The position numbers and the translations under genes were made by a program. This document shows, piece after piece, positions 10,376 to 37,177 of a DNA stretch of 54,492 nt (within the stretch, counting starts at the first letter, position 1; each line of letters starts with the position of its first letter). Under the pieces are notes generated by a model. The model did no database searches, had not been told where the DNA came from, and saw only the letters and a list, made by a program, of their open reading frames with translations. The stretch comes from a virus. Its lineage: Duplodnaviria; Caudoviricetes. Location of the stretch: positions 1 to 54,492 of IMG/VR virus record IMGVR_UViG_3300035670_000271; one strand, given 5' to 3'.

Positions 10376-10561
10376 AAGGGCACTCCCCAAAAATAGAACG
10401 TCACGGATAAATTGTTTCTATGTGAATAGGATAGCAAGAGAATATTATCTTGTCAAGACTTTTGTGTTTTTTTTCATTTTCGTTTAGAGAAAACGCCTAA
10501 TATTAAAAGCCGAGAGCGCAATGTAAAAAAAATATGGTGAGATTCACTCAGTCAAGCAAAC

Positions 10562-24285: not shown

Positions 24286-25638
24286 ATGCAAAAAAATAAA
24301 AATATCGTCGTCTATGCGTTTTTAGCGGTCGCGATAACCATGATCGCCGCCTCGCTCTATCAAAAAGGTGAAATGTGGGTCAAACGGCAAGCCTTCGGCG
24401 ATGTCTTTGACGCGCAATTGGTCAGGGTGTCGGAAAAGGAGGCTGAACTCCGTGTCGCACAACTCGACATGGAGTTGGAGCGCATTGCATATAAGCGATC
24501 TCGGATAGGTGAGACGTCCGCCAAAATCCACAGTATCATTCTTATCCTGATTTGTGGCGGGTTTTTGGTCACGGGGTTGTATGCGACACCGATTTCGTTA
24601 GCTCACCTGCGGGCGAATTCTGTCATTGAACAGCATATCGGGTCATCTGTGTTGCGTATCCACTTCCAGACGGTCAAGAGTCCTGACTTTGCGCAGTTCA
24701 TGGGATTAGTCGCGCATATTGAAGGTGTGAGAGCGCAGAATCCTGAGAAGGCGCTTGAGATGTCATTGCAACTCACAAAAGCGATTACGGGCAGACTTGC
24801 CGCGTTGCCACATCCAGTCCAGTCAAGCTCATCTGCTGCGATGCCACAATTGACGCCCGTGCCGACGTTCCGCCAACTCTATGATGCCGGAAAAGTCGCG
24901 CCTGGTCAACCCCTCTGCATGGGTTTTTGTCAAGGGGAGCCGCAAAATAGAAGCATCAATGAAATCAGAAGCATGGCCGTCGCAGGAGCACAGGGCAGCG
25001 GAAAAACCCTGTCGATTGCGTACCTGATTACAAGCCTGTTGTCAATCGAAAAAGACTCGCAAGGTTTTGTGATCGATCCTCATCACAAGCATCATGAAGG
25101 GCTATGGTCGTACATCTCTCCATTGGAGCAGACTGGAAGGTTGACGCGGGTAGGAGAATTTGAATGCCGGGAGCGGATGGAATGGCTACAAGATCGGCTT
25201 GACGCTCGTCTTAATGACCAAGAGCCATCAACGTCTCTCATCTTTTTTGTTATTGACGAACTTCCCGCAATCGGCAAGATTGACATTTTTCAGCAATCAA
25301 TCTTACCCGTGCTTTCGCGTTGTGTCTCTGAAAGCCGAAAGGCAAGAATTCTCTTCATCGGCGCTGGGACACGCTGGCAGGCGTCTAATTTTGGCGGAGA
25401 CGCTTCAATTCGTCAGACTCTATCATCCCTATGGGTTCACAAGACTAAGCCGTCTCAAGCCGAATTTTTGCTTGAGGATTCGCAAGATCGGAAACTCGTT
25501 AAAGCATTGAAGTCGCCGGGGCAGGCACTCTTGGCAACCGCAAACAGTAGTGACCCAAGCATCGTGACAGTGCCGCTCATTACTAAAAGCGATATTCTCA
25601 CGGTAGCTCAGGCGTTACAACCAAAAGAGGGGTCATGA
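24286..25638 (+). CDS. FtsK/SpoIIIE/TraB-like membrane DNA translocase ATPase
   Basis: Two hydrophobic segments, GAQGSGKT Walker A, VIDP, FFVIDELP Walker B, ESRK. Confidence 0.8.
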   Translation: MQKNKNIVVYAFLAVAITMIAASLYQKGEMWVKRQAFGDVFDAQLVRVSEKEAELRVAQLDMELERIAYKRSRIGETSAKIHSIILILICGGFLVTGLYATPISLAHLRANSVIEQHIGSSVLRIHFQTVKSPDFAQFMGLVAHIEGVRAQNPEKALEMSLQLTKAITGRLAALPHPVQSSSSAAMPQLTPVPTFRQLYDAGKVAPGQPLCMGFCQGEPQNRSINEIRSMAVAGAQGSGKTLSIAYLITSLLSIEKDSQGFVIDPHHKHHEGLWSYISPLEQTGRLTRVGEFECRERMEWLQDRLDARLNDQEPSTSLIFFVIDELPAIGKIDIFQQSILPVLSRCVSESRKARILFIGAGTRWQASNFGGDASIRQTLSSLWVHKTKPSQAEFLLEDSQDRKLVKALKSPGQALLATANSSDPSIVTVPLITKSDILTVAQALQPKEGS

Positions 25639-25663
25639 TTCTTCCTCCCGCGTCTCACTCGAC

Positions 25664-25719
25664 GCATAACGACAGCTTCAGCGGCGAAGAGGGGTGAGCC
25701 ACTCAAGCTGTCGTTAATG
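25664..25719 (-). repeat. attC site (short, terminal)
   Basis: TAACGACAGCTT...AAGCTGTCGTTA stem directly after the last cassette ORF. Confidence 0.7.
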
Positions 25720-25720
25720 A

Positions 25721-25936
25721 TTATTCTTCCCCGCGCCCCTCTGCTATCGTATTATGTTGTCGAATCATTGCCTGTGCATATATTACCGCATGGGTATAAT
25801 CATTTCTTAACGCAATTGATATGCCTCCTAATGGTTGCCATCCTTCACGTATCTTTTGTTTTACATTTTGTTGTAATATTCTGGAAGAGTTCCATTCCTC
25901 AATATGATAATCAACAATATTCATCGTAATTTGCAC
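25721..25936 (-). CDS. Cassette gene: DUF1737-like protein
   Basis: L...V...I.EGWQPLGGISI...YAQAM. Confidence 0.7.
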   Translation of the reverse strand: MQITMNIVDYHIEEWNSSRILQQNVKQKIREGWQPLGGISIALRNDYTHAVIYAQAMIRQHNTIAEGRGEE

Positions 25937-25950
25937 CTATTATTAAATAT

Positions 25951-26032
25951 GCCTAACAAGCCGCATGAGCGGCGAAAACCGCCTGGACGCTGTTCATCTT
26001 GGTTAATAGTTCCCGGCGGTTTTCGTCCGCTC
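25951..26032 (-). repeat. Truncated attC (family A)
   Basis: GCCTAAC..gcatgagcggcgaaaaccgcc...ggcggttttcgtccgctc; right core missing. Confidence 0.75.
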
Positions 26033-26080
26033 TAAGGGAACTTGGTTCACCATATTCTATCACTTAAACTGTGAACGGAG

Positions 26081-26149
26081 GCATAACGCGCTGAGGCCGC
26101 GCCATGCCTCCGTTCACACAATGATTAGTCTTCGCGCCCCGTGTTAGCA
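26081..26149 (-). repeat. Damaged attC (family C)
   Basis: Matches the 31785 site internally; both arms partly lost; GTTAGCA core at 26143. Confidence 0.7.
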
Positions 26150-26397
26150 ATTTCAGCGCCAACCTGAAATGCCATATCACACGCCTCATCAGAAACATAA
26201 TCCAACTCAGAAAAACCGCTCAACGAATATCCTATAAGTTGCGCAAATTGTTCTCTGTCCTCTCGACAAAAAGGCATTCGCGCTATTTGATTCAAATCAA
26301 AAGGGCCGTCATTAAGCAAAAAACGTACAATTCTATTTTCAACAAATCTTAGAATTCCTTTCTCGTCGATTTCTATTGATTGTAAAGGGTGTCTCAT
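26125..26397 (-). CDS. Cassette gene: phage-type hypothetical protein
   Basis: RF.EN.IV..LL...DLN.IA...F..ED.EQFAQLIGYSLSGF.EL.YVSDE. Confidence 0.7.
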   Translation of the reverse strand: MRHPLQSIEIDEKGILRFVENRIVRFLLNDGPFDLNQIARMPFCREDREQFAQLIGYSLSGFSELDYVSDEACDMAFQVGAEIANTGRED

Positions 26398-26529
26398 TCT
26401 GTTCCTCCGTAATTAGAACTTTATCCCAATTCGCTCAGGCGTGTCTTGATACGCATTATTAAGAGCATTCTGGAAACTACCTCTTCCGATATTGACTTCG
26501 TATCCTTCTGATTGTCTCCTTTAAAATAT

Positions 26530-26627
26530 TGCTAACAACGTGCATGAGCGGCGAAAACCGCCTGTGTGCTGTTCATTATTGTGAATCTCGCCCGGCGGTT
26601 TTCGTCCGATCCATGCGATTGTTAGAA
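26530..26627 (-). repeat. attC site (family A)
   Basis: TGCTAAC...GTTAGAA imperfect palindrome with bulged bases. Confidence 0.9.
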
Positions 26628-27445
26628 CGCTCATCTCCCATACTAAAAAGATTCTGCTGCCGCGTGTCCTTCTCGATACGCTGACACGCTTTCTCAAAGA
26701 TTTCCGAGTCTTTCTCCATGCCGATCCATCGTCTGCCGGTTCTAAACGCGGCAACGGCTGTTGTCCCTGAGCCGATCACGTTGTCAAGCACCGTGTCGCC
26801 TTCATTCGTATAGGTTCTGATGAGATATTCAAACAGCGCAACCGGCTTCTGTGTTGAATGTATTGTTAACCCTGATTTTGTTGAGTTGAAAAAATCAGAC
26901 TCAGTTTTTACAGAAAATACTGAACGAGGGAGCCTTGATCCGTCTTTACTTCCTGACTCCTTTATTGGTGAAAATTCCCCATAGTTTCCATTCCGCTTTT
27001 GACGATATTTCTCATTCTTAAAGCTTGGTGTAGTCAACATGAATTTCTGTGGATGATACACGGGTAAACTCTTATAAAACACAAGGATATTTTCATGCCC
27101 TCGCAACGGCATCCTGTTTGAATTCAAAAATCCTGTCGCAATCGACTTCTCCCATACTAAATCGTACCGAAACAGCTTATGATTCGACACGACAAGAAAG
27201 CTGGTGAACGGTTCAGCCGCAGTCAATACAATCGCACCATTCTGTTTGATGATGCGCTCGTACTGTTCCCATAGTGGAGCAAACGGAATAACGACATCCC
27301 ACTTATTTTGAGTCGTGCCATACGGTAAGTCAGCAAGAATCATGTCGATGGAACTGTCAGGAATATCTTGCATTAATTCCAAACAGTCTCCTTCGTAAAT
27401 GATACCATGCTCAAAGTCTTGCTCTCTCACTGGCTGAGTCTCCAT
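26576..27445 (-). CDS. Cassette gene: N6A/N4C DNA methyltransferase (beta class)
   Basis: DLPYG, HSTQKPVAL, LDNVIGSGTT. Confidence 0.92.
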   Translation of the reverse strand: METQPVREQDFEHGIIYEGDCLELMQDIPDSSIDMILADLPYGTTQNKWDVVIPFAPLWEQYERIIKQNGAIVLTAAEPFTSFLVVSNHKLFRYDLVWEKSIATGFLNSNRMPLRGHENILVFYKSLPVYHPQKFMLTTPSFKNEKYRQKRNGNYGEFSPIKESGSKDGSRLPRSVFSVKTESDFFNSTKSGLTIHSTQKPVALFEYLIRTYTNEGDTVLDNVIGSGTTAVAAFRTGRRWIGMEKDSEIFEKACQRIEKDTRQQNLFSMGDERSNNRMDRTKTAGRDSQ

Positions 27446-27450
27446 TTGCG

Positions 27451-27549
27451 TTCTAACAACGCGCATGAGCGGCGAAAACCGCCCTGTGCACTGTTCATCT
27501 TGGTTAATAGTCCCCGGCGGTTTTCGTCCGATCCATGCGATTGTTAGCC
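27451..27549 (-). repeat. attC site (family A)
   Basis: TTCTAAC...GTTAGCC. Confidence 0.9.
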
Positions 27550-27753
27550 TTTTTCCATTATCTTGTCGATCAAAAACTTTACATCATTTTCATGGACATA
27601 CGAATCATCACGACACATGCTCCATGCGTAATCTTTCAACCCTAATTCCTCAACAGTGGGAATATCCCGTAAAACAAAAGCGGCTGTCGCTGGATCGTCC
27701 CGTGTCAGAAACTCTTGCGCCGTCGCAATAGCTTTTTTAGTATGCTCTGTCAT
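27544..27753 (-). CDS. Cassette gene: hypothetical protein
   Basis: RBS AAGGA; stop TAA lies inside the inverse core. Confidence 0.7.
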   Translation of the reverse strand: MTEHTKKAIATAQEFLTRDDPATAAFVLRDIPTVEELGLKDYAWSMCRDDSYVHENDVKFLIDKIMEKG

Positions 27754-27770
27754 TTCCTTCACCTTTAAGT

Positions 27771-27881
27771 GGCTAACGCTTGTTTTGCACCTGACCCAAA
27801 AGGGCGGGCGCAACACGCTTGAAAGTAAACCACTAATTTTTATGCCCGCCCTTTTGGGTCAGGTGCAAAACATTGTTCGCA
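27771..27881 (-). repeat. attC site
   Basis: GGCTAAC...GTTCGCA around a long stem tgttttgcacctgacccaaaagggcgggc. Confidence 0.85.
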
Positions 27882-28021
27882 GGCGTTTTGTGTATTCAAC
27901 ACGACTGCCGTGTTTTTGGTACTTCTGACACCCGCTAAGATGTCAGGTTGCCATCTCGGTTCGGTACGTTGACCGGTGCGTTACCTCACGAAAGCTCTAC
28001 ATGAGAGCAACACTTCACGCC

Positions 28022-28040
28022 TGCGAACGCATTGTTATGC
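28022..28040 (-). repeat. Collapsed attC (cores only)
   Basis: TGCGAAC-gcatt-GTTATGC; each core complements the far end of its neighbouring cassette. Confidence 0.6.
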
Positions 28041-28086
28041 AACTTGTTTATATTGTTAGACATACGAACACTATCCACAGGAGAAA

Positions 28087-28188
28087 GCATAACGACTGCG
28101 ATAACGCGCTGAAGACGCGCCTGCACAGACGCTCGTTCAATGTTAATCTTGCTGCGCGGCTTCAGTCGCGTTCATTGCTTTGTTAGCA
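28087..28188 (-). repeat. attC site (family C)
   Basis: GCATAAC...GTTAGCA. Confidence 0.88.
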
Positions 28189-28451
28189 ATCTGTTCATAT
28201 TTTAAACCATGTGCTCTATGCGCTGCATTTACTGTCTCAAGCGTCGTTTCACACCAATGAAACAAAGGATGATCTTGATTTTTGCACATCCAAGAATCCT
28301 GCAATAATTTTATTTGTTCTTCTATGCGCGATAGATAATCATGAATGCTCATTTTATTAACTCTATCATGAGAATCTGAATGGCAAAAATCAGAAAATCT
28401 TTGTTCTTCTGCGCCCCTATTATATCCGTGACCCCATTGTTTCTTGCCCAT
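28143..28451 (-). CDS. Cassette gene: hypothetical protein
   Basis: RBS AAGGA; the ORF reads through into attC. Confidence 0.65.
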   Translation of the reverse strand: MGKKQWGHGYNRGAEEQRFSDFCHSDSHDRVNKMSIHDYLSRIEEQIKLLQDSWMCKNQDHPLFHWCETTLETVNAAHRAHGLKYEQIANKAMNATEAAQQD

Positions 28452-28473
28452 ACATATCCTTTCGTTCTAAGAT

Positions 28474-28571
28474 TGCTAACAACGCGCATGAGCGGCGAAA
28501 ACCGCCTGGACGCTGTTCATTATTGGTAATCTCGCCCGACGGTTTTCGTCCGATCTATGCGATTGTTATTC
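28474..28571 (-). repeat. attC site (family A)
   Basis: TGCTAAC...GTTATTC. Confidence 0.9.
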
Positions 28572-28796
28572 GTCCTTATCAATACATTCAATTTCTACTT
28601 TGCCGTTTGATTTGATAATAAATACAAACCTTTTTGATTTAGCATTTTCATGCGTTAAATCAAAACGCTGGCGCAATTCAGCAGGGATTGTCATCTGCCA
28701 ATGCTCTGATGTTTTCCCCTGGCTGACTCTTATAGCAATAGGTTTTGATTTGATTTCAAATTGTGGACTCATGCCGGTATTTTGCCCCCAGGCCAA
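28566..28796 (-). CDS. Cassette gene: AbrB/MazE/SpoVT-type DNA-binding protein
   Basis: QMTIPAELRQRFDL...FII..GKVEI. Confidence 0.7.
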   Translation of the reverse strand: MAWGQNTGMSPQFEIKSKPIAIRVSQGKTSEHWQMTIPAELRQRFDLTHENAKSKRFVFIIKSNGKVEIECIDKDE

Positions 28797-28990
28797 AATT
28801 TACGATACTGTGATGCTTCGTAATCAGCTTGCCAGTATTCCTTTTGCGCTAATTCGTAACAATGCTTTAGCCCAGGAGATACCCTCCCGTGTTTTTTTGC
28901 GTCGTCTACCATTTCTTTATGCGCTTCCCGTCTTTTCTTGACGGCTTTATCCAAATCTTTTTTCACGTTACGCCATGCACGGTATCCCAT
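28769..28990 (-). CDS. Cassette gene: small basic protein paired with the AbrB-like gene
   Basis: First ORF downstream of the cassette-internal promoter. Confidence 0.6.
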   Translation of the reverse strand: MGYRAWRNVKKDLDKAVKKRREAHKEMVDDAKKHGRVSPGLKHCYELAQKEYWQADYEASQYRKFWPGGKIPA

Positions 28991-29053
28991 TATATTTCCC
29001 CCATTTCTTGTTTGAGTTCTTTCAACGTCTATACGTTCACTTAACTAATATAC

Positions 29054-29082
29054 AGTATAATATACCGACAGGTATTTGTCAA
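29054..29082 (-). promoter_or_regulatory. Cassette-internal promoter
   Basis: TTGACA-17-TATACT; the spacer holds the palindrome atacc-tgtc-ggtat. Confidence 0.8.
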
Positions 29083-29146
29083 GCGTTTATCAAAAATATT
29101 TACTCTCAGGTGTGATTTTTTCAATAAACGCTGCAAACAGGAAGAC

Positions 29147-29247
29147 GGATAACGAGCGCATAACCGGCTTTGGAGGGCGCGTGCTCACTTCACCACGAGG
29201 TGAAATTCCCCGCGCCCTCCAAAGTCCGGTTCATGCGTTTGTTATGA
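29147..29247 (-). repeat. attC site (family B)
   Basis: GGATAAC...GTTATGA; near-identical to 35734-35833. Confidence 0.9.
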
Positions 29248-29294
29248 CTTCGGTTTATTTTGCGATTGCTACAATACGATCTTTCTTGAATTTA

Positions 29295-29353
29295 CGCTCG
29301 CACCATGTTAGTGTTCCGGCGCGGTTTCAGTCGCGTTCATTGCAGTGTTATAT
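29295..29353 (-). repeat. Half attC (family C)
   Basis: gcgcggtttcagtcgcgttcattgcagtGTTATAT right arm only. Confidence 0.7.
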
Positions 29354-29559
29354 CACCCACCACCTGCCACAGCTTTTCCGAATGATTCTTTCACAGAATG
29401 GACAGATAATTCTCCCCAAATGCAAGGATCGTAAGTCATTTCTTTTTTGATGATTTCCTGCGCTTCTTCTAATGATTCAGCAATAGCGAACGCTAACCCA
29501 GAAGTATAGTCAGGAGAAAACCCTTCCCAAACATATAATTGTAATTTATTTTTTGCCAT
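29353..29559 (-). CDS. Cassette gene: phage-type hypothetical protein
   Basis: LYVWEG...DYTSGLAFAIAES.EEA; RBS GGAGG. Confidence 0.7.
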   Translation of the reverse strand: MAKNKLQLYVWEGFSPDYTSGLAFAIAESLEEAQEIIKKEMTYDPCIWGELSVHSVKESFGKAVAGGG

Positions 29560-29583
29560 GATTCCCTCCGCTCGTAGTTAGTG

Positions 29584-29686
29584 ATATAACGACTGGCATA
29601 ACCGGCAAAAGCCGCGCCAGTACTTGGTTTATAGACTATCCAAATTCGCCGCGCGGCTTTTGTCCGCGTTCATGCCTTTGTTAGGC
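29584..29686 (-). repeat. attC site (family D)
   Basis: ATATAAC...GTTAGGC. Confidence 0.9.
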
Positions 29687-29901
29687 TTCTGTTTCATTTT
29701 GACTGCTGCAATTTCTCGCTCACGCTTCGATTTCGGCATGTTGCGAAAAAAAAAGATCGCGCGTTCAAGATACAAAGGAACTGGCCGTTCTCCTGTCGTC
29801 ATGCGATAAATGACAGGGCGATGAGAGCCTAACAACAAGGCGGCCTGACGTGGATTTAGGCCATATTCCTCCAAGAATGTGTTGAGTTCGTCTTGTGTCA
29901 T
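29629..29901 (-). CDS. Cassette gene: HTH DNA-binding protein (Aca-like)
   Basis: MTQDELNTFLEEYGLNPRQAALLLGSHRPVIYRMTTGERPVP. Confidence 0.75.
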   Translation of the reverse strand: MTQDELNTFLEEYGLNPRQAALLLGSHRPVIYRMTTGERPVPLYLERAIFFFRNMPKSKREREIAAVKMKQKPNKGMNADKSRAANLDSL

Positions 29902-29929
29902 AGCATGAAAGGGGCTTTCGCCCCTCTGT

Positions 29930-30139
29930 TTAGATTTCTGAAAAATCTTGAGCATCAAAATTCAATTCGCCCATGTTCGTTTCTACTGTGTATGATACAG
30001 CGATAAAGTATCCTGGTTTATTTTTGTATATGGTCGGCTCTTCAATTTTTGTTTCGACTCTTTCCGCTGAATACACTTTGCCAGATTCTATTCCAAAAGA
30101 TTTGTTGAAATCGTTATTTGCTTTAACTTGAACTCTCAT
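29930..30139 (-). CDS. Cassette gene: small protein upstream of the HTH gene
   Basis: RBS AAGGAG and ATG 30139 downstream of an internal promoter. Confidence 0.7.
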   Translation of the reverse strand: MRVQVKANNDFNKSFGIESGKVYSAERVETKIEEPTIYKNKPGYFIAVSYTVETNMGELNFDAQDFSEI

Positions 30140-30195
30140 TTTTATTCTCCTTGTTGTTAGTGTTTTTGTTTTCCCTCTCATCAACTTACAAGTTT

Positions 30196-30224
30196 AATAT
30201 AGTACCAATGGTACTTTTTGTCAA
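30196..30224 (-). promoter_or_regulatory. Cassette-internal promoter with operator palindrome
   Basis: TTGACA-17-TATATT; the spacer contains AGTACCA-T-TGGTACT. Confidence 0.8.
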
Positions 30225-30333
30225 GCACTTTCTCACATTTTTTTGAATTATTTTATATAATTCCTGAAAATGCCTGATTCATAGGGAGCACAAGGAGAAA
30301 ATATTTTATCAAAGAACGCTGTTGATGGTAGAA

Positions 30334-30445
30334 GCCTAACGACAAGCTTCAGCAGCTTGGAAGGGCGGGCGGCAACCAAGCGTGAAGTAAAACAACAGAC
30401 TTTCTACGCCCGCCCTTCCAAGTCTGCTGCAAGCATTTGTTCGGG
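30334..30445 (-). repeat. attC site
   Basis: GCCTAAC...GTTCGGG; stem gcttcagcagcttggaagggcgggc with two bulges. Confidence 0.88.
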
Positions 30446-30591
30446 CTTCTTTCGTCTCATAACCACATCCTGCCATAAAAGAAAACTATTGGCTAAAATT
30501 ACCCCAAACCAAGCAATCCCTCTAAACAAACTGATTCCAATTATACTGATGATAATCGCAAAGATACGAATAGTCATCAGTGAACGATTGT

Positions 30592-31344
30592 TTAATATGG
30601 TCTCTTGCATGTTGGACATATCCCTTTTGTTGACGCTGTTGGTTTTGAACCAACATTGATCCCGAAATTTTCTTTGATTGGATGTGGGCCTAAATATACG
30701 CCTTGCGTAAACGACCCCGCACCATATAATAACTCAATAATCTCTTGCTTTTGTTGGTCTGATAATGTTTTAAACCAATCCTGTTCAAATGCAAGAAAAT
30801 TTCGATTGAGAACCTTACAAGATGCAGGAACTGTGCCACCACCTGTAAAGGGATCAAAAATAATTGCTTGCGTTGATGTCAGCCTGTCTATGTAATACAG
30901 ATACGGCCCCGCCTGTTTATGCCACTTATGATTTCCTGATAATAACGCCGGATTCCCATCAACAAAATAATCTCTTGTTGGCTTATTCACAGTAGGAATG
31001 CCCTTTCTAAATACAAGAATAGAGTGCCAACAAGAAAACATTTTCATTGCGCCAAAAATATTGAGTGCTGGACGATAGCAGGCTATTTGCCAAATAAATT
31101 CAATTGTTTCATTTTGAACAGCTTGAAGTGTTTCAAAGAGCCGTTTTTGTGCGTGCCATACTAAACAAGCTGAATTTGGCTTCAATATCCGCGCTGCTGT
31201 TTCTCCGAGCCATTTATAATCATCAACGTTTTCATAAATGGGATCAGTGAAAATCAGGTCAACCGATTCATCGGGAATGCCCTTTGACAATTCTCTGGCA
31301 TCGCCTGTATAGATTTGGTTGAGTTCGTATTCTCCGAGTTTCAC
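30592..31344 (-). CDS. Cassette gene: DNA methyltransferase, probably a chimera with an unrelated C-terminus
   Basis: DLIFTDPIY, HKWHKQ and DPFTGGGT, then unrelated sequence ending CPTC. Confidence 0.8.
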   Translation of the reverse strand: MKLGEYELNQIYTGDARELSKGIPDESVDLIFTDPIYENVDDYKWLGETAARILKPNSACLVWHAQKRLFETLQAVQNETIEFIWQIACYRPALNIFGAMKMFSCWHSILVFRKGIPTVNKPTRDYFVDGNPALLSGNHKWHKQAGPYLYYIDRLTSTQAIIFDPFTGGGTVPASCKVLNRNFLAFEQDWFKTLSDQQKQEIIELLYGAGSFTQGVYLGPHPIKENFGINVGSKPTASTKGICPTCKRPY

Positions 31345-31360
31345 TGTCTCACCTCAAGCA

Positions 31361-31459
31361 GCAGAACAACACGCATGAGCGGCGAAAACCGCCCTGTGCT
31401 CTGCTTATTATTGTTAATAGTCCCCGGCGGTTTTCGTCCGCTCGATGCGATTGTTAGAC
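31361..31459 (-). repeat. attC site (family A)
   Basis: GCAGAAC...GTTAGAC. Confidence 0.9.
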
Positions 31460-31762
31460 ATGATTAATTGCTACCTGCGTTAATTTAGCAATTACCCAAA
31501 CACGTAAGTCTGACAAATCTTTATTCACCTCAGCGGCACACTCAAGCCAGCGTTCTCCCGCCATCACATCGAACAGAATATGTCCCTTATAATCGCCATG
31601 CGTGTATTCTATATTTTTTACAGACATATCCAAAAATTGAGCGCAAGCATTGACTTCTTTCTGTACGGATTCTTGTCTTGCAATCTGCGATTGCAATGCT
31701 TGTGGATCATCATACTTCCCCCTTGCTAATCCTGCTATGTCGGAAAACTTTGATAATTTCAT
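31454..31762 (-). CDS. Cassette gene: hypothetical protein
   Basis: Fills the cassette; stop in the inverse core. Confidence 0.7.
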   Translation of the reverse strand: MKLSKFSDIAGLARGKYDDPQALQSQIARQESVQKEVNACAQFLDMSVKNIEYTHGDYKGHILFDVMAGERWLECAAEVNKDLSDLRVWVIAKLTQVAINHV

Positions 31763-31784
31763 TTCTTACCACTCCTGTGAGTAT

Positions 31785-31885
31785 TGCTAACGACTGGCAT
31801 AACGCGCTGAGGCCGCGCAATGCTGCCGTTCACACAATGTTAATCTTCGCGCGCGGCCTCAGTCGCGTTCATGCCTTCGTTAGAC
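31785..31885 (-). repeat. attC site (family C)
   Basis: TGCTAAC...GTTAGAC. Confidence 0.9.
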
Positions 31886-32126
31886 ATCCTCCCTGTTATC
31901 CTTTGAGCCTCTTTCAACGCTCCCTCTCTCACGATCTTTGATTCTTCAATCCCTGAAACCTCAACAGCCAATTCAATTATATGCCGTTCCTCTTCCGAGA
32001 AACGATAGACCTTACGAATAGTTCGGCGTTTTTCTTCTGGCTTCTCGGCGTTTTTGTATGTGCCAGGGCGGAGTCCCTGGTTTCGATTATCTTCTCGATT
32101 ATCTCTTTGAATTCTAAATCATCCAT
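31840..32126 (-). pseudogene. Frameshifted DUF1778-like RHH antitoxin/regulator cassette gene
   Basis: Adding one C near 32003 gives VRSIRFSEEERHIIELAVEVSGIEESKIVREGALKEAQRI. Confidence 0.6.
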
Positions 32127-32152
32127 ATCTTTTGTTTGTATTACAGAGCGGT

Positions 32153-32263
32153 TTCTAACGATCGCAAATCACCGGCGACAAAGGGCGGGCGGGAAAAGCC
32201 TGTAATACAGCAACCAAGTTTTAGGCCCGCCCTTTGGCGTCCGGTGCATTTGCATTGTTATGC
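32153..32263 (-). repeat. attC site
   Basis: TTCTAAC...GTTATGC. Confidence 0.88.
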
Positions 32264-32452
32264 TGCGTCTATTGTCTTTTCAACTAACTGACGCAGCCAC
32301 TTTTGATACGACTTAAACCCGGCCACTTTTGCCGCCTGAATGATGTGCTTTTTCAATTCCGGCTCACACCTGAAAGACACTTGCACATCTTTTGTGCCGT
32401 CTTTAGTGGAGCCGGTTGGTCTCCCGGCTCCTTCTCGTTTCCCGCCTCGCAT
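32258..32452 (-). CDS. Cassette gene: RHH-type DNA-binding protein
   Basis: RGGKREGAGRP, then VSFRCEPELK...AA...G...WLR. Confidence 0.75.
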   Translation of the reverse strand: MRGGKREGAGRPTGSTKDGTKDVQVSFRCEPELKKHIIQAAKVAGFKSYQKWLRQLVEKTIDAA

Positions 32453-32733
32453 TAGTATGCCTCGTATCCTTCAATTTCCCAATCCAGTTGATCCAACTCC
32501 TCAACCTTATCGAGAGCATCCTGCATCTGGTAGTAATAGGCTACAAGGGTGCGTCGTTCGCCTTCTGCGTCCGTGTAGTTTATGGATGCCGTAAACTCAA
32601 CAGATTGATCGCCGTCCGTCTGTACCCGCCCGCTAAAATCGCAATTCTCACGATCTAATGCTTCAACAACTTCTTTACTAGCTTCTACGATTGCCTGATC
32701 TCTCGTTAATTTACCGTGTCTCATGTGTTTCAC
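32452..32733 (-). CDS. Cassette gene: small acidic protein (anti-defence candidate)
   Basis: D/E-rich 93 aa, TAATG-coupled to the RHH gene, own promoter TTGACA-16-TATATT at 32782-32809. Confidence 0.7.
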   Translation of the reverse strand: MKHMRHGKLTRDQAIVEASKEVVEALDRENCDFSGRVQTDGDQSVEFTASINYTDAEGERRTLVAYYYQMQDALDKVEELDQLDWEIEGYEAY

Positions 32734-32907
32734 CTCGTTTGCTTGACGTTTTTAAAATTTCCATTTACTGAGTATAGTCTTAATATAAGCATTATAGAAT
32801 TTTTGTCAAGCAAATAATCTAAATATTTACACAAACAAGACGATTTTTTGAGGTCAAAACCTGAGAACGCCTGATCTTGTAGGCAAGAACTTTTTACGAG
32901 TGAAGCA

Positions 32908-33014
32908 GCATAACGACGCGCATAACCCGCCAAAAGCCGCGCGCCGAATTGTTTCACGAACACCGGCCACGCTCTCCGCGCGGGTTTTGGTCGGGGTTCA
33001 TGCGATTGTTATGC
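32908..33014 (-). repeat. attC site
   Basis: GCATAAC...GTTATGC. Confidence 0.9.
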
Positions 33015-33203
33015 CGCACATTTCCAAATTTTAACATTCCCCTGATTACTTGCCTTCCAGTAAGCATGCTTTTCTGCCCATCGCATTAGGCGAACAAGGC
33101 TAAATCTTGACACCCCATAATATTTACGATAATGCCACCCGATACACACAAGGTTTTTCACTCCTGGAAGATTATCATATATTGCGATACCTGTCTTCTT
33201 CAT
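33009..33203 (-). CDS. Cassette gene: small basic hypothetical protein
   Basis: RBS AGGGGAG, ATG 33203, stop in the inverse core. Confidence 0.65.
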   Translation of the reverse strand: MKKTGIAIYDNLPGVKNLVCIGWHYRKYYGVSRFSLVRLMRWAEKHAYWKASNQGNVKIWKCAA

Positions 33204-33233
33204 TTCTCCCCTTTGCCGCTTACTTTTTAAGCG

Positions 33234-33374
33234 GCATAACGCTTGGCTTGAGGTGCTTGGGGGACGCCCTTCAGCGGAGCAACCAAGCCCGAACCCCCTC
33301 TGAACGATATGGCGGACAACCTCTGCTGAAATCACCGCGCGTCCCCCAAGTCACCCTCCAAGCCTTTGTTCGCG
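33234..33374 (-). repeat. attC site (long, 141 bp)
   Basis: GCATAAC..ggcttgaggtgcttgggggacgc...gcgtcccccaagtcaccctccaagcc..GTTCGCG. Confidence 0.85.
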
Positions 33375-33385
33375 ATGCTCTCTCG

Positions 33386-34960
33386 TTATAACAATTGTTG
33401 TTGCGTACTTTCTTGAATATGCTTGCCAGCCGTTTTAAAGACGCCATGCGTCGTCATGGGCATTTTGACCTGTTCACCATCCAATAGCTGTTCAATCGTC
33501 AGAAGTTGAATCGTCGGAAACTGTGTCGCATAGACGCCAAGCTGCTCACCATGCGGAGAATAAAAGCCTTCCTGCTTGGCTTCTCGAATCATGGGCGTCG
33601 TCACCTGTTCCTGAAAACACACAAACACTCCAATTGCGGCTTTTTGAGACTTCACGACGTGAATAAACTCTCTCAGGTTCTTGACATTCACCTTGCCGCT
33701 TTTGACTTCGATCAGCACGGTTTCTTTCTTCTTGCCCATCGCAAAGGTCATGTGCCCATCCCATCCGCCATCTGCGGTTTTCTTGGGATTACTGACACCT
33801 GACAACACAAATTCAATGACCCAATCCTGAAATTTAAACCGACCATTGTCGTCACTTTCCGCTAAAGCTTTGGCTGAGGCGATGTCTTTTGGAATGCCAA
33901 ACACTTCAAAGGTGTGACGAATTTCAGCATATTTTGTGTCATACGTCTCCTGAAGGCGTTTCATGACCAGTTTGATTGAGAGATGTGAAATGTCAACGCC
34001 TAACCATCGGCGGCCTAATTTTTGGGCGACAGCGATGGTTGTCCCGCATCCACAGCAAAAGTCAGCCACCAGATCGCCTTCGTTGCTGCTCGTTTTGAGA
34101 ATACGTTCAAGTAGTTCTTCTGGTTTTTGGGTCGGATACCCTAAACGCTCTTTTGCCATTGGATTGATATGAAAAATATCATTCCATAAATTATTCATAG
34201 GAACGCCTTTCAGGGTATTGATGTATTGCTTATATTCTGGCTTTCCTGATTTTGTCCACCGCAACATATCTTGTGATTCAAGGTCGTGTAACTTTTCATC
34301 AGAATATGTTTTCATCGCTTGCCAACGATATTTCCCTTTTACGTCTTGATACTTGAACCGTTTGAGATAAGTTTCTCCATATTCTCGATACAGCTTATTA
34401 AAGGTAAATTGTTCAGTCTTTGTATAAAATAAAATCGTATCAGTATCGGCACTGAATCGTTTTGAGAGAGATTTGCTACTCCCAGTGTTTGTCGTTCTTT
34501 GCCAAATAATTTCATTTTGAAAATATCGTTCACTAAAAATCATATCACAGGCTATCTTCAAATAATGGCTCATTGTTGGGTCACAGTGCAAATAAAAGCT
34601 TCCAGTGTCTTTCAGTACCTTGTACATATACCATATTCTGAGAGCCATCGTACAGAGATACGATATAGCTGCCTTTGGGAGTGACGTATTATCAAGCACA
34701 TTCAGCACGTTATACAGGTCAAGATCAATCTCATGAATCTCGTTCAATGTGTCGAGATAGGACACTTGACTCCATGTATCGGCAAACGCTTCTTTTTGGG
34801 CTTTGGTGTCTTGCAAGTCCACATCTTCAAACAAAATGTTATAGTTCCGTTTTGAGTTAAACGGAGGGTCAATATAAATCAGATCAATAAAGCCGTTTGG
34901 ATGCGCGGCATACAGTTGTTTGAGTATATCGAGATTATCACCAAAATATAATGCATTCAC
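33386..34960 (-). CDS. Cassette gene: DNA methyltransferase fused to a Mrr-like PD-(D/E)xK domain
   Basis: IYIDPPF, YPTQKPE, DFCCGCGTT; C-terminal DGGWDG...IEVKSG. Confidence 0.9.
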   Translation of the reverse strand: MNALYFGDNLDILKQLYAAHPNGFIDLIYIDPPFNSKRNYNILFEDVDLQDTKAQKEAFADTWSQVSYLDTLNEIHEIDLDLYNVLNVLDNTSLPKAAISYLCTMALRIWYMYKVLKDTGSFYLHCDPTMSHYLKIACDMIFSERYFQNEIIWQRTTNTGSSKSLSKRFSADTDTILFYTKTEQFTFNKLYREYGETYLKRFKYQDVKGKYRWQAMKTYSDEKLHDLESQDMLRWTKSGKPEYKQYINTLKGVPMNNLWNDIFHINPMAKERLGYPTQKPEELLERILKTSSNEGDLVADFCCGCGTTIAVAQKLGRRWLGVDISHLSIKLVMKRLQETYDTKYAEIRHTFEVFGIPKDIASAKALAESDDNGRFKFQDWVIEFVLSGVSNPKKTADGGWDGHMTFAMGKKKETVLIEVKSGKVNVKNLREFIHVVKSQKAAIGVFVCFQEQVTTPMIREAKQEGFYSPHGEQLGVYATQFPTIQLLTIEQLLDGEQVKMPMTTHGVFKTAGKHIQESTQQQLL

Positions 34961-35017
34961 ACCTGGCGTTCATCTTTCGTATAGCCTCATATACGCTTAG
35001 TTAAGAGACTATACCAA

Positions 35018-35119
35018 AGCGAACGACTGGCATAACCGGCAACAGCCGCGCCTTCCAGCCGCTTGCACTATGTTAATGTTTCGGCGCGGCTGTTGTCCGC
35101 GTTCATGCCTTTGTTAGCA
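35018..35119 (-). repeat. attC site (family D)
   Basis: AGCGAAC...GTTAGCA. Confidence 0.9.
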
Positions 35120-35136
35120 ATCTGATTTTTATTTAC

Positions 35137-35337
35137 TTGACATATCATAATATACTTACTATCTTTATCTTGATGATAGTTGAGCATAGCGACTTTTTAT
35201 CAAGTCCGCCGTGACTGCTCAGGAAATTAACTCTAATACAAGGATGAAACAAGTTCATTTCGTATAGCGTTATACGTTGCTTTCCAGACTACATCAAAGC
35301 GAACGCCGCCCCAGGTCTAAGCAGCCTGGGGCTTTTC
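35137..35337 (+). ncRNA. Candidate cassette-encoded small RNA (promoter to terminator)
   Basis: TTGACA-17-TATCTT at 35137-35165; no convincing ORF; terminator gccccagg...cctggggctttt at 35308-35336. Confidence 0.5.
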
Positions 35338-35709
35338 ATTATAACATGATAAGCATCCATCTCGTTTATCACACTCCGTCACATCACACGAAGAATTTAC
35401 CATATCATCCTGCATACGTCGCCGTTCTTCATCTGGCAATACATTCCATGCGTATTCTGCATGGTTTAGACAATATTTGCCTCCACAAACCTGCTCAGGC
35501 TCTTCTCCGTGATATTTACGGATAGTATTGACAGATTGAACGCTGATGTAAAGACTGTATCTTGAGTCTGCCTCATCAGTATTTTGAATCTGAATTGTCT
35601 GGTCATGCGGAGTGACAACCTGCACAATTTGAATAATTTCTCCATCGCCATATTCTTCTACTTCTTCTGTATGAATGTTTTTAAAATGAACCCAATCACC
35701 TATTTTCAT
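35317..35709 (-). CDS. Cassette gene: hypothetical protein, Cys-rich C-terminus
   Basis: MKIGDWV N-terminus; several Cys pairs. Confidence 0.7.
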   Translation of the reverse strand: MKIGDWVHFKNIHTEEVEEYGDGEIIQIVQVVTPHDQTIQIQNTDEADSRYSLYISVQSVNTIRKYHGEEPEQVCGGKYCLNHAEYAWNVLPDEERRRMQDDMVNSSCDVTECDKRDGCLSCYNEKPQAA

Positions 35710-35733
35710 ATCTCAATGCCACTCCCATAAGAT

Positions 35734-35833
35734 TGCTAACGAGCGCATAACCGGCTTTGGAGGGCGCGTACTCACTTCCCACGAGGCAAAAGTTCCCGCG
35801 CCCTCCAAAGTCCGGTTCATGCGGTTGTTATGC
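35734..35833 (-). repeat. attC site (family B), first cassette
   Basis: TGCTAAC...GTTATGC. Confidence 0.9.
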
Positions 35834-36034
35834 AGATTTGTCTCCATGAATCGGGAAATTCCATTCACGACATTTCCCATACGCTTCTTTCGCTGCTTTA
35901 TCATCGTTGCCTTTAATGCCAAGTCCGATTTTATCACGACAACTAACTCCACACCATCCAGTTAAATGCGGCTTTACGTGTTGATTACAATATACCCATT
36001 GATTCTCACCAAATACTTTTGCATCTTCTTCCAT
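35828..36034 (-). CDS. First-position cassette gene: small Cys/His hypothetical protein
   Basis: WVYC.QH..PH.TGWC; RBS GAGGAG; stop in the inverse core. Confidence 0.7.
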   Translation of the reverse strand: MEEDAKVFGENQWVYCNQHVKPHLTGWCGVSCRDKIGLGIKGNDDKAAKEAYGKCREWNFPIHGDKSA

Positions 36035-36058
36035 GTCTTTCTCCTCTCTTCATGAACG

Positions 36059-36121
36059 GCATAACAATTATTATATTGACAAATTCTATATCTAATATTA
36101 TATTAATACACAGAAAGTCAA
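36059..36121 (-). promoter_or_regulatory. attI-like site overlapping the integrase promoter
   Basis: Lone G/TTATGC core at 36065 with no hairpin; plus-strand TTGACA-17-TATATT at 36076-36104. Confidence 0.7.
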
Positions 36122-36132
36122 GGAGAAAATAC

Positions 36133-36864
36133 ATGAAAACAAAAAAATATGACGAATATCTACTCTATCTCTATAGTTTTTCACAACTTAGCAAACAAAC
36201 AATCTGTGCGTATCTCTCATGGTCAGCAAAGCTCTGTCTCTGGGTTGGGGTCGCGCATCCGTTGGACGTGCCGCCGGGAAAAATTGACGAATTTCGCCTC
36301 TATCTACTTAACGAGAAAAAATTCTCATGGAAGAGCGATACGGTTGTGTTTAACGCTTTGAAGCACACCTACTCGACGCTCTTGAAACATGTTGAACCAG
36401 AAGAGGCCAAGAAATATGCGAATATCTTCCGCACGTCACCACGACAGCCTAACACCCTGCCGCGCTATGTGACACAGGAGAGCATGGCCGCCTTTTGCGC
36501 GGCGCTTCCTGCGACGATTGCAGGCAATCTCTTGCGATCAAGCTATCAGACGGGAAAAACGGTAGATATGATTTTGGCCAAGGCGGAAAAGCCCTGGAAA
36601 GTCTCGCAGAGATACCTGCAACAAGTTTGTCTAAAGACCGCGCTGAAAGTCGGTATGCCGAAAGGGTTCGGCGTGACCGGAGTCAGGGGTGCTGGCATCT
36701 TACACAGAATCCAAAACCGACAGACGGATTTAGAATTGACAGCCATTCGTGAGGATTCCGGCCTGTCACATGCGCAGTTTCTCTTGTATTGTCGAGCGGC
36801 AGGTGTGACCGGGTTATCTGGGAATGCAACCAGACAACGCCACCGCAAGAAGAAGCAAGCATAA
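36133..36864 (+). CDS. intI: Integron-integrase (IntI)-derived protein, internally deleted and probably catalytically inactive
   Basis: S.QT..AY..W......GV.HP......I.EF..YL.NE.K.S, PR..NTLP..T and Y.TG align with IntI1; box I R and box II H residues replaced. Confidence 0.8.
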   Translation: MKTKKYDEYLLYLYSFSQLSKQTICAYLSWSAKLCLWVGVAHPLDVPPGKIDEFRLYLLNEKKFSWKSDTVVFNALKHTYSTLLKHVEPEEAKKYANIFRTSPRQPNTLPRYVTQESMAAFCAALPATIAGNLLRSSYQTGKTVDMILAKAEKPWKVSQRYLQQVCLKTALKVGMPKGFGVTGVRGAGILHRIQNRQTDLELTAIREDSGLSHAQFLLYCRAAGVTGLSGNATRQRHRKKKQA

Positions 36865-36874
36865 CAGATAGAAT

Positions 36875-37177
36875 CTATATCGCATAAGACTTCCGAATTC
36901 CGGCGTAAATCGCTCGGTAAACGAACCACCACGCCAACGTAATGGGGATATTGGCAAGAATCCAATCCACCACTGGCAAAAACGCAAACTGAGCGCCCAC
37001 AATCGTTTCTACGACGCGGGGGGCATGATGGAGGATTACGCCACACGCCACAAGATTTACGAGCACCTGTGGCGTGTAGACCCTATAAATTCGGTAACTC
37101 TGAATAGCGAGCGCCAAAAAGATCGCAAACTCTAACGCCATGAGGCAAAACGAAATACTATACAGAATCGTCTTCAT
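36875..37177 (-). CDS. Membrane protein with 3 predicted TM segments (holin candidate)
   Basis: Three hydrophobic segments and a basic C-terminus. Confidence 0.5.
   Translation of the reverse strand: MKTILYSISFCLMALEFAIFLALAIQSYRIYRVYTPQVLVNLVACGVILHHAPRVVETIVGAQFAFLPVVDWILANIPITLAWWFVYRAIYAGIRKSYAI

Follow-up and report, generated by a model that had tools for sequence, protein, structure and literature searches.

The 54,492-bp virus record IMGVR_UViG_3300035670_000271, which we analysed as a whole and refer to as the window, has direct terminal repeats and represents a complete phage genome. Within it lies an array of integron-type gene cassettes, and one of these, cassette 5, is the subject of this report. 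It encodes a small acidic protein (open reading frame [ORF] A) and a small ribbon-helix-helix (RHH) protein (ORF B) behind a promoter of its own. The sequence architecture of the cassette, its status as a cassette and the mobility of its design are well supported. We propose that it is a mobile, autorepressed counter-defence module of the phage, built on the logic of anti-CRISPR (Acr) operons and their Acr-associated (Aca) regulators, and we give this reading a probability of roughly 0.45.

Cassette boundaries and attC-like sites

The features of the cassette and its immediate surroundings are as follows:

32160..32913, minus strand: studied cassette (cassette 5), 754 bp; promoter, ORF A, ORF B and its own attC-like site, between two R' boxes
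32908..33014, minus strand: attC-like site of the preceding cassette (cassette 4); 73.4 bits, E 5e-17 with covariance model R1 (see below)
32805..32814, no strand assigned: left arm of an inverted repeat, TTTGCTTGAC on the minus strand; overlaps the -35 box; candidate operator half-site
32782..32809, minus strand: sigma-70-type promoter TTGACA-16-TATATT; 11/12 consensus matches
32738..32747, no strand assigned: right arm of the inverted repeat, GTCAAGCAAA on the minus strand; in the 5' untranslated region (UTR), 1 base before the Shine-Dalgarno element
32731..32736, minus strand: Shine-Dalgarno element GAGGTG, 6 nt before ATG 32724
32452..32724, minus strand: ORF A, 90 aa; acidic, unnamed family, predicted two helices and four-stranded sheet
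32258..32452, minus strand: ORF B, 64 aa; basic (isoelectric point [pI] 10), Gly/Arg-rich N-terminal arm followed by RHH
32153..32263, minus strand: the cassette's own attC-like site; R'' GCATAAC at 32263-32257, R' GTTAGAA at 32160-32154
25664..36065, minus strand: cassette array (context); 16 strong attC-like sites plus 1 weak one in a single orientation, ~17 cassettes

The window contains 24 copies of the heptamer GTTATGC/GCATAAC where 6.3 are expected, and 17 of the 24 fall within 25,664-36,865. These boxes are parts of imperfect palindromes of ~100 nt. Read on the minus strand, the palindromes have the layout of attC sites: an R'' box (G/T-N-C/A-T-A-A-C), a spacer, an inner box, a variable GC-rich stem, a second inner box, a spacer and an R' box. 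Integron cassettes are delimited by inverse core boxes with the consensus R'' RYYYAAC and R' GTTRRRY, and such boxes were found here, with GCATAAC, GCCTAAC or GTCTAAC as R'' and GTTAGNN or GTTATGC as R' on the cassette strand. Alignment of 15 sites yielded 20 consensus pairs, and compensatory changes were seen in 14 of these. The covariance model built from this alignment, R1, retrieved 16 sites at 54-95 bits, all on the minus strand and all within 25,951-35,833, including one that was absent from model building; the same 16 sites scored only 16-36 bits on the plus strand. An extra, weak attC-like site was found at 25,664. The sites fold with extra bases on one arm, and thus display the combination expected of attC sites, namely a structure-conserved imperfect palindrome, extra bases on a single arm and one common orientation. 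In attCaadA7 the extra bases are G and T; those in the window differ from them in both position and identity (C and T on the plus strand).

The R' box of the preceding site, GTTATGC at 32914-32908, forms the 5' boundary of the studied cassette, and cutting at G|TT would place the cassette start at 32913. The own site of the cassette scored 64.0 bits with R1 on the minus strand (E 1.7e-14) versus 29.3 bits on the plus strand, and its DNA fold had an energy of -34.8 kcal/mol. The G|TTRRRY form of the R' box agrees with that given in the accessible text of PMC9892861. The initial annotation had drawn the unit from 32257 to 32914; both coordinates proved to be outer GTTATGC/GCATAAC boxes of the two attC-like sites, and the cassette as defined by recombination runs 32913->32160. 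These features give good support to the conclusion that the studied interval is one complete integron-type gene cassette, predicted from sequence, in a phage-borne array.

Promoter and gene layout

The internal promoter TTGACA-16-TATATT that had been proposed for this region was confirmed on the minus strand, with its -35 box at 32809-32804, a 16-nt spacer and its -10 box at 32787-32782. Sites of this quality are rare: those with at least 11/12 matches number 7 over both strands of the window, and across 30 dinucleotide shuffles the mean was 1.17 and the maximum 4. Four of the seven lie in the cassette array (29082-, 30224-, 32809- and 36076+). At a loose threshold of 9/12, promoter-like sites in the region were at chance level (13 vs 12.1). 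The inverted repeat whose arms overlap the -35 box and the 5' UTR is perfect over 10 bp, and is the sole repeat of at least 8 nt within 32700-32915.

The program-made ORF list began ORF A at GTG 32733, which gives 93 aa. This GTG falls within the Shine-Dalgarno element GAGGTG, and the position of ATG 32724 (MR.G.LTR) is where each of the 18 homologues begins; ORF A is therefore 90 aa long. The initial description of a 93-aa, D/E-rich ORF thus holds for its acidity (22 D/E vs 9 K/R, net charge ~-13, pI 4.2) and not for its length. The stop codon of ORF A, TAA at 32454-32452, and the ATG of ORF B have one A in common, the last of the stop codon, which gives the overlap TAATG and upholds the claimed layout for translational coupling. 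The stop codon of ORF B, also TAA, lies inside the R'' box GCATAAC of the attC-like site.

A longer motif around -35 boxes was also seen across the genome. TTT(T/G)CTTGAC, with at most one mismatch, occurs 16 times in the window versus 5.5 expected, mostly on the gene strand (examples on the minus strand at 10551, 10816, 12881, 14012, 17387, 20704 and 49276). It is probably a T-rich extension of the -35 box common to the promoters of this phage.

ORF A is a stand-alone acidic protein with polyvalent-type relatives

Homologues of A were found in metagenomes (18 sequences, 47-89% identity) and were labelled at most as 'hypothetical protein'. A profile search of 1.84 billion representatives recovered 416 clusters at E 1e-3 or better, nearly all of them stand-alone proteins of ~90 aa. 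The top row of that search, P0031, was discarded as a spurious match to Hpf1-type YTTT repeats. Two long polyvalent-type proteins, P0169 and P0165, carry the A domain internally. P0169 also contains MuF_C (E 3.6e-18) and ArdC-N (E 1.7e-4) domains, and P0165 an ArdC-N domain (E 1.5e-4); PHROGs returned nothing for four fusion proteins.

The AlphaFold2 model of A is confident (predicted local distance difference test [pLDDT] 86) and comprises two helices, three long strands, a short helix and a last strand. The ESM Atlas offered no feature match of use, and its structural rows were left aside because it models A poorly (pLDDT 0.44). Prediction of a complex between A and two copies of B scored 0.01 in both runs against a mark of 0.32, a result that counts neither way.

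ORF B has a predicted ribbon-helix-helix fold

The second ORF had been described as a 64-aa RHH-like protein, and this was borne out by structure prediction and by a weak Pfam match, a NikA-like RHH family at E 4.6e-4, below the cut-off. The match in PHROGs was also weak, and to a family of unknown function. The AlphaFold2 model (pLDDT 75) shows a low-confidence arm, an extended segment and helices at residues 31-43 and 49-63; the arm (residues 1-20) is basic, with pLDDT 52-54. Foldseek rows from the PDB were almost all RHH proteins, among them Arc, TacA1, NikR, CopG, CopA, ParD and the RHH part of an AcrIF25 complex, at an rmsd of 1.2-1.7 A over ~40 residues. All their E-values were 0.7 or worse, because the domain is so small. 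The B profile against PDB sequences gave two rows only (E 0.7 and 1.1), the second being a CopG-family regulator.

Ten homologues of B were found at 71-84% identity, two of which one source labels as 'DUF1778 family'. Their alignment shows an invariant N-terminal arm (MRGGKR.GAGR) and an RHH core. The homologues bear C-terminal tails of 8-17 residues; the copy in the window has none, because its ORF ends in the attC-like site. The RHH fold of B, together with its position behind the TAATG overlap, places a small putative DNA-binding regulator last in the operon, as in acr-aca operons.

Relatives of ORF A and mobility of the cassette design

Pattern scans for A identified 72 loci: 12 in viral contigs (IMG/VR), 59 in contigs from metagenomes and a single one among 185,579 species genomes. 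The A frame is present at every locus; the loci comprise 42 distinct A sequences, of which 34 were evaluable in that at least 200 nt lay downstream. The distribution of A is phage-biased and nearly absent from bacterial genomes, as the 12 viral loci against the single species genome indicate.

In 6 of the 34 evaluable relatives (L003, L005, L014, L023, L062 and L063), A is followed by an RHH-like ORF that overlaps or abuts its stop codon. These partners form two unrelated sequence families. That of L003 is related to B (35% identity) and has a weak TacA1 match (E 0.028); the other five are different, with a similar Gly/Arg arm. A further 5-6 relatives have a possible small DNA binder, by eye only and with Pfam silent, and none of 20 ORFs beside A relatives (19 downstream, 1 upstream) matched Pfam at the family cut-off. 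Unrelated or no adjacent small ORFs, and no attC, were found at ~22 of the 34.

The six A+RHH relatives and the window share a common plan: an R' box, a promoter, A, an overlapping RHH gene and a TAA in a YYTAAC box. In 7/7 cases the RHH gene ends with this TAA. At each of the five A+RHH loci with upstream sequence, a promoter-like element with a 16-nt spacer occupies the same position, reading TTGACA-16-TACAAT in L003 and L062 and having weaker -35 boxes in L005 and L023. The attC model matched directly behind the pair in L003, L005/L028 and L014/L061, before it in L062, and further along in L030 and L033. In all there were 11 matches in 54 sources, at ~28 bits and with strand unreliable, and none was near a partner-less A gene. 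A generic scan for AAC...GTT hairpins in two other viral records was abandoned as unspecific, since shuffled sequence gave equal numbers (19-32 vs 32). No IntI was found in the two viral records behind L003 and L005.

Evidence for movement came from the L005-type cassette, which is present at 12 loci with 88-99.5% identity to L005 over a stretch of only ~620 bp. In 10 of the 11 other loci this identity is limited to ~460-640 bp, and the flanks comprise 8 different left contexts (of 12) and 6 different right contexts (of 9) in mixed combinations. Such a near-identical core among many different flanks shows that the L005-type cassette shuffles between contexts. The initial annotation had called the cassette mobile, which is in keeping both with its attC-bounded position in an array of 16-17 sites and with the homologous A+RHH cassette in 8 left contexts. 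We conclude that mobility of the A+RHH design is well supported by sequence comparison of the homologous L005-type; the window's own copy is known from one array.

The cassette of the window, or part of it, was present in 5 sequencing runs from 2 studies, all DNA and no RNA run among them; two of the runs may be the source of the record. Contigs of 4 runs placed on 25500-36900 showed the array unchanged; they break at the attC repeats and include one joint of the circular or terminal-repeat kind. Neither an excision joint nor another cassette order was found in them; because contigs drop rare variants, they are silent on mobility.

The only relative in a species genome, L014 (G003), belongs to a metagenome-assembled genome (MAG) of Kiritimatiellia. 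This MAG encodes a genuine integron integrase, IntI (489.9 bits), and has attC-model matches, both on other contigs. On the contig of L014 itself, attC occurs downstream of the pair only, and the surrounding small ORFs are phage-like by eye.

Proposed model of an autorepressed counter-defence cassette

In the model that we favour, host RNA polymerase would start at the cassette's own near-consensus sigma-70 promoter. With a promoter inside the cassette, expression would be independent of distance from the array promoter. Both proteins would be made from one mRNA, B through translational coupling to A. The 10-bp inverted repeat over the -35 box and 5' UTR is the most likely binding site of B, acting as a dimer or tetramer, and its occupation would shut the promoter once enough protein has been made. 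A would be the cargo, which would bind and so neutralise some function of the host. A defence system is the most plausible target, and A might act on it as an acidic mimic of nucleic acid. The whole unit would move between arrays by attC recombination. The promoters of acr operons need Aca repression. We reasoned that a cassette far from the array promoter would need its own promoter for early expression, and that a strong promoter would then need a brake.

B is best read as that brake, a putative autorepressor of the operon, given its minimal RHH, its N-terminus resembling a DNA arm, its position as the last gene and the promoter-overlapping repeats in each version of the cassette. A is most likely a conflict effector of phages and mobile elements, which is the best-supported class for it. 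It is small and very acidic, nearly confined to viral and metagenomic sequence, and often solitary in phage genomes; moreover, it is embedded in MuF/ArdC-type polyvalent proteins, and is carried together with three methyltransferase cassettes.

Several results weigh against this model. A had no match in Pfam, PHROGs, NCBIfam or PADLOC, dedicated Acr, dbAPIS and AntiDefenseFinder profiles being outside the search, and tblastn found nothing in 50,697 GenBank phage records or 72,556 PLSDB plasmids. The A profile gave 0 matches at E 10 or better among PDB sequences, Foldseek with the A model found nothing better than E 0.1 in PDB or BFVD, and an exhaustive VIA fold search peaked at Z 4.1 with RelE/ParE-type toxins, below the usual best of unmatched models. 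The ArdC-N matches in the A fusions lie just below the Pfam cut-off (22.2-22.4 vs 22.6 bits). The repeat over the promoter differs by cassette type, being inverted in the window, direct in L003 (TGTGGTACAA x2) and inverted in L005 (TAATGCTT). Finally, L014 in a bacterial MAG with a genuine IntI indicates that the cassette pool is not purely viral. The Acr-Aca-like reading of the initial annotation is partly supported, by the strong internal promoter, by an RHH gene in the position of an autorepressor, by the inverted repeat over the -35 box and by a layout like that of Aca14 operons; the anti-defence activity of A and repression by B are predictions.

The same architecture and distribution would also fit an autoregulated accessory cassette in which B is still a repressor and A serves host takeover, replication, transcription or superinfection exclusion. 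No finding links A to a defence system in particular, the targets of most small early phage proteins lie outside defence, and the other cassettes of the array are mostly ORFs of no known family. The ArdC-N/MuF fusions, the methyltransferase cassettes and the Acr-Aca-like design of promoter and repressor point instead to the arms-race class, none of them decisively, and we consider a non-defence role somewhat unlikely. An interplay confined to the two proteins, with A as an anti-repressor or co-factor that binds B and no separate cargo, would account for their opposite charges (pI 4.2 vs 10.0) and their translational coupling. Since A partners at least two unrelated RHH families, often has no partner, and also occurs inside large multidomain proteins, such a regulatory pair seems very improbable.

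A toxin-antitoxin (TA) cassette is the rival that suggests itself first. A would be a toxin encoded first and B an RHH antitoxin and autorepressor, with a role in array stabilisation or abortive infection. The toxin gene also comes first in higBA and brnTA. Two overlapping small genes with their own promoter in an integron-type array are the classic picture of a TA cassette (PMC13108822, in its accessible text), and the same array contains two more self-promoted two-gene cassettes. The best fold rows of A, weak as they are, are RelE, ParE, YoeB and HigB toxins (Z 3.1-4.1), and the 'DUF1778 family' label of B homologues (the TacA antitoxin family), like the TacA1 match of the L003 partner, points the same way. 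However, the calibration of the fold-search tool puts the best score usually reached by unmatched models above a Z of ~4, and neither Pfam (at E 0.01 or better) nor NCBIfam (at E 0.1 or better) linked A to a toxin family. RelE-type toxins are basic, whereas A is strongly acidic. B consists of a ~20-residue low-confidence basic arm and an RHH, with neither an evident toxin-neutralising region, as expected of a type II antitoxin, nor the short C-terminal tail of its homologues. Nor are the two genes always paired, as ~22 of the 34 evaluable A relatives have no recognisable partner. The embedding of A in polyvalent proteins and its near-absence from bacterial genomes (1 locus in 185,579 species) likewise argue against a toxin, and post-segregational killing would have no obvious role in a phage lacking a detected integrase catalytic domain. 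We therefore regard a TA pair as improbable.

A broader form of the counter-defence model may be put forward tentatively. A might found a new, widespread counter-defence family, for example of acidic mimics that block a restriction-type or nucleic-acid-sensing system, and move as an integron cassette complete with promoter and RHH repressor. The attC arrays of phages, served by a minimal recombinase of the phage itself, would on this view be 'counter-defence biobanks'. Integron cassettes are normally promoter-less and have been studied in bacteria. Bacterial chromosomal integrons store anti-phage defence systems, according to the accessible part of bioRxiv 10.1101/2024.07.02.601686, and phage arrays of the proposed kind would be the mirror image of those anti-phage cassette libraries. 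If A does act in counter-defence, it represents a new effector family of 416 sequence clusters. Further cases could then be sought by a simple genomic signature, namely a phage attC array in which a self-promoted cassette ends with a small repressor gene, and the cassette would be evidence that phages exchange ready-to-express counter-defence modules by integron-type recombination. Were it a TA pair instead, A would represent a novel toxin family, unusual for its location.

The phage genome and its other cassettes

PHROGs matches in the window include a tape measure protein, the terminase large subunit, a portal protein with a MuF-like C-terminus, a head protease, a virion protein and a helicase-primase; this set of structural and replication proteins identifies the virus as a tailed phage. 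An Rfam scan of the window gave nothing at gathering thresholds, and megablast of the array against GenBank phages gave no match.

Cassette sizes across the array range from 287 to 1,784 bp. The array end facing the first cassette is a GTTATGC junction (36065-36059) that is attI-like. Three cassettes encode DNA methyltransferases (N6_N4, Pfam), at 26576-27466, 30592-31344 and 33386-34960, the last with a fused Mrr_cat-like C-terminus. The remaining cassettes mostly contain ORFs of no known family, many of them small, and Pfam on 10 other cassette ORFs gave no match at the family cut-off.

At least three cassettes in the array have near-consensus promoters of their own. One other such cassette, at 29584-30333 on the minus strand, has the promoter TTGACA-17-TATATT (30224-30196) and an 84-aa ORF overlapping a 109-aa ORF; the latter weakly matches the PHROG transcriptional regulator phrog_14076 (E 2.9e-4). 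Another, at 28474-29146 on the minus strand, has TTGACA-17-TATACT with its -35 box from 29082, and combines a basic 73-aa ORF with an overlapping 76-aa ORF that is AbrB/MazE-like by eye (Pfam MazE_antitoxin at E 0.093 only).

Cassette 6 (31838-32128, minus strand) contains an RHH-like frame (..RKVYRFSEEERHIIELAVEVSG..) without its own start codon, which overlaps, in another frame, a 49-aa ORF starting with ATG. We take this to be a frameshifted RHH gene or an assembly error. Cassette ORFs also run into their own attC-like sites and have similar peptide ends, ..GMNA(D/T).., for example at 28143, 29629, 31840 and 35068; these ends are the translated conserved inner box GCATGAAC.

A divergent recombinase-like gene beside the array

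Next to the array, in the position of intI, lies one further gene:

36133..36864, plus strand: tyrosine-recombinase-like gene, 243 aa; divergent from the array

It has its own promoter, TTGACA-17-TATATT (11/12), with the -35 box from 36076. The N-terminus of the protein contains a SAM-like integrase domain (PF13495, E 8e-8). In a complete integron, IntI scores at least 265 bits against TIGR02249 and has a Phage_integrase catalytic domain. The 243-aa protein matched TIGR02249 over its N-terminal third only (model positions 13-116), at 21.6-22.3 bits against that cut-off, and a six-frame search of the whole genome for the catalytic domain PF00589 gave no match at E 10 or better. The ESM Atlas model of the protein aligned at TM 0.71-0.74 with Xer/integrase clusters along residues 5-227. 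Candidate R, H and Y residues can be picked out by eye in the C-terminal half, where the usual beta-hairpin region is missing. No relatives were found in viral contigs, and among 328 candidates from a set of 5.8 billion proteins the search returned only the protein itself. Judged by these models, the protein has a predicted tyrosine-recombinase fold, too divergent to be recognised as IntI. The array is therefore integron-like in layout, and its recombinase, if active, is no recognisable IntI.

Comparison with known systems

Polyvalent proteins form the conflict weaponry of phages, plasmids and conjugative elements (Iyer et al. 2017, PMC5512222, in its accessible text). The domains described there resemble A in that the A domain occurs in two large proteins with MuF_C and ArdC-N-like domains; in the cassette, by contrast, A is a stand-alone protein of 90 aa. 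Self-promoted two-gene cassettes of chromosomal integrons are typically TA systems, as far as the accessible text of PMC13108822 goes. Like the TA cassettes of sedentary chromosomal integrons in that source, the cassette studied here is self-promoted, has overlapping ORFs and an RHH-type putative DNA binder, and sits in an attC array. Unlike them, it has no toxin homology, an acidic and often solitary cargo, an RHH without a neutralising extension, and a phage replicon as its home.

Qi et al. (2023, PMC9892861) reported integrons and clusters of attC sites (CALINs) in phage genomes, some of whose cassettes encode orphan DNA methyltransferases; in its accessible text, that paper defines a CALIN by at least 2 predicted attC sites. 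The methyltransferase cassettes were proposed there to protect attC-cluster phages from restriction, so that cassettes help to overcome host defence. The array in the window is likewise made of attC-bounded phage cassettes that include methyltransferases. What sets it apart from those CALINs is the number of sites, 16-17 within a complete genome, together with the attI-like junction and the divergent gene for the 243-aa recombinase-like protein. The accessible text of PMC9892861 makes no mention of cassettes of the A+RHH type; its supplementary cassette lists might include relatives. A literature search on integron gene cassettes, anti-CRISPR and phage surfaced only surveys and reviews, judged by title or the opening of the abstract. 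Phage attC clusters, RHH Acas and self-promoted cassettes are thus each already known alone. With the same proviso on supplementary lists, what is new is the A family, the recurrent packaging of A+RHH as a mobile, ready-to-express phage cassette, and the size of the array beside a minimal recombinase-like gene.

The nearest parallel to the proposed counter-defence cassette is Aca14, an RHH-type Aca that, according to the accessible text of bioRxiv 10.64898/2026.07.27.740549, was shown experimentally to bind an inverted repeat over the -10 box. No relation between A and any Acr was detectable, and B is likened to Aca14 by layout, not by sequence. The packaging of such an operon as an attC-bounded integron cassette is also a departure, one not described in the accessible text of PMC9892861 or of the Aca14 preprint. 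As in acr-aca and Aca14 operons, a strong promoter is followed by a small, fast-evolving cargo and then by a small DNA-binding autorepressor, here a predicted one, on a phage or mobile element. As in Aca14 operons, too, an inverted repeat lies over a promoter element, and the regulator family has been swapped between homologous cargos.

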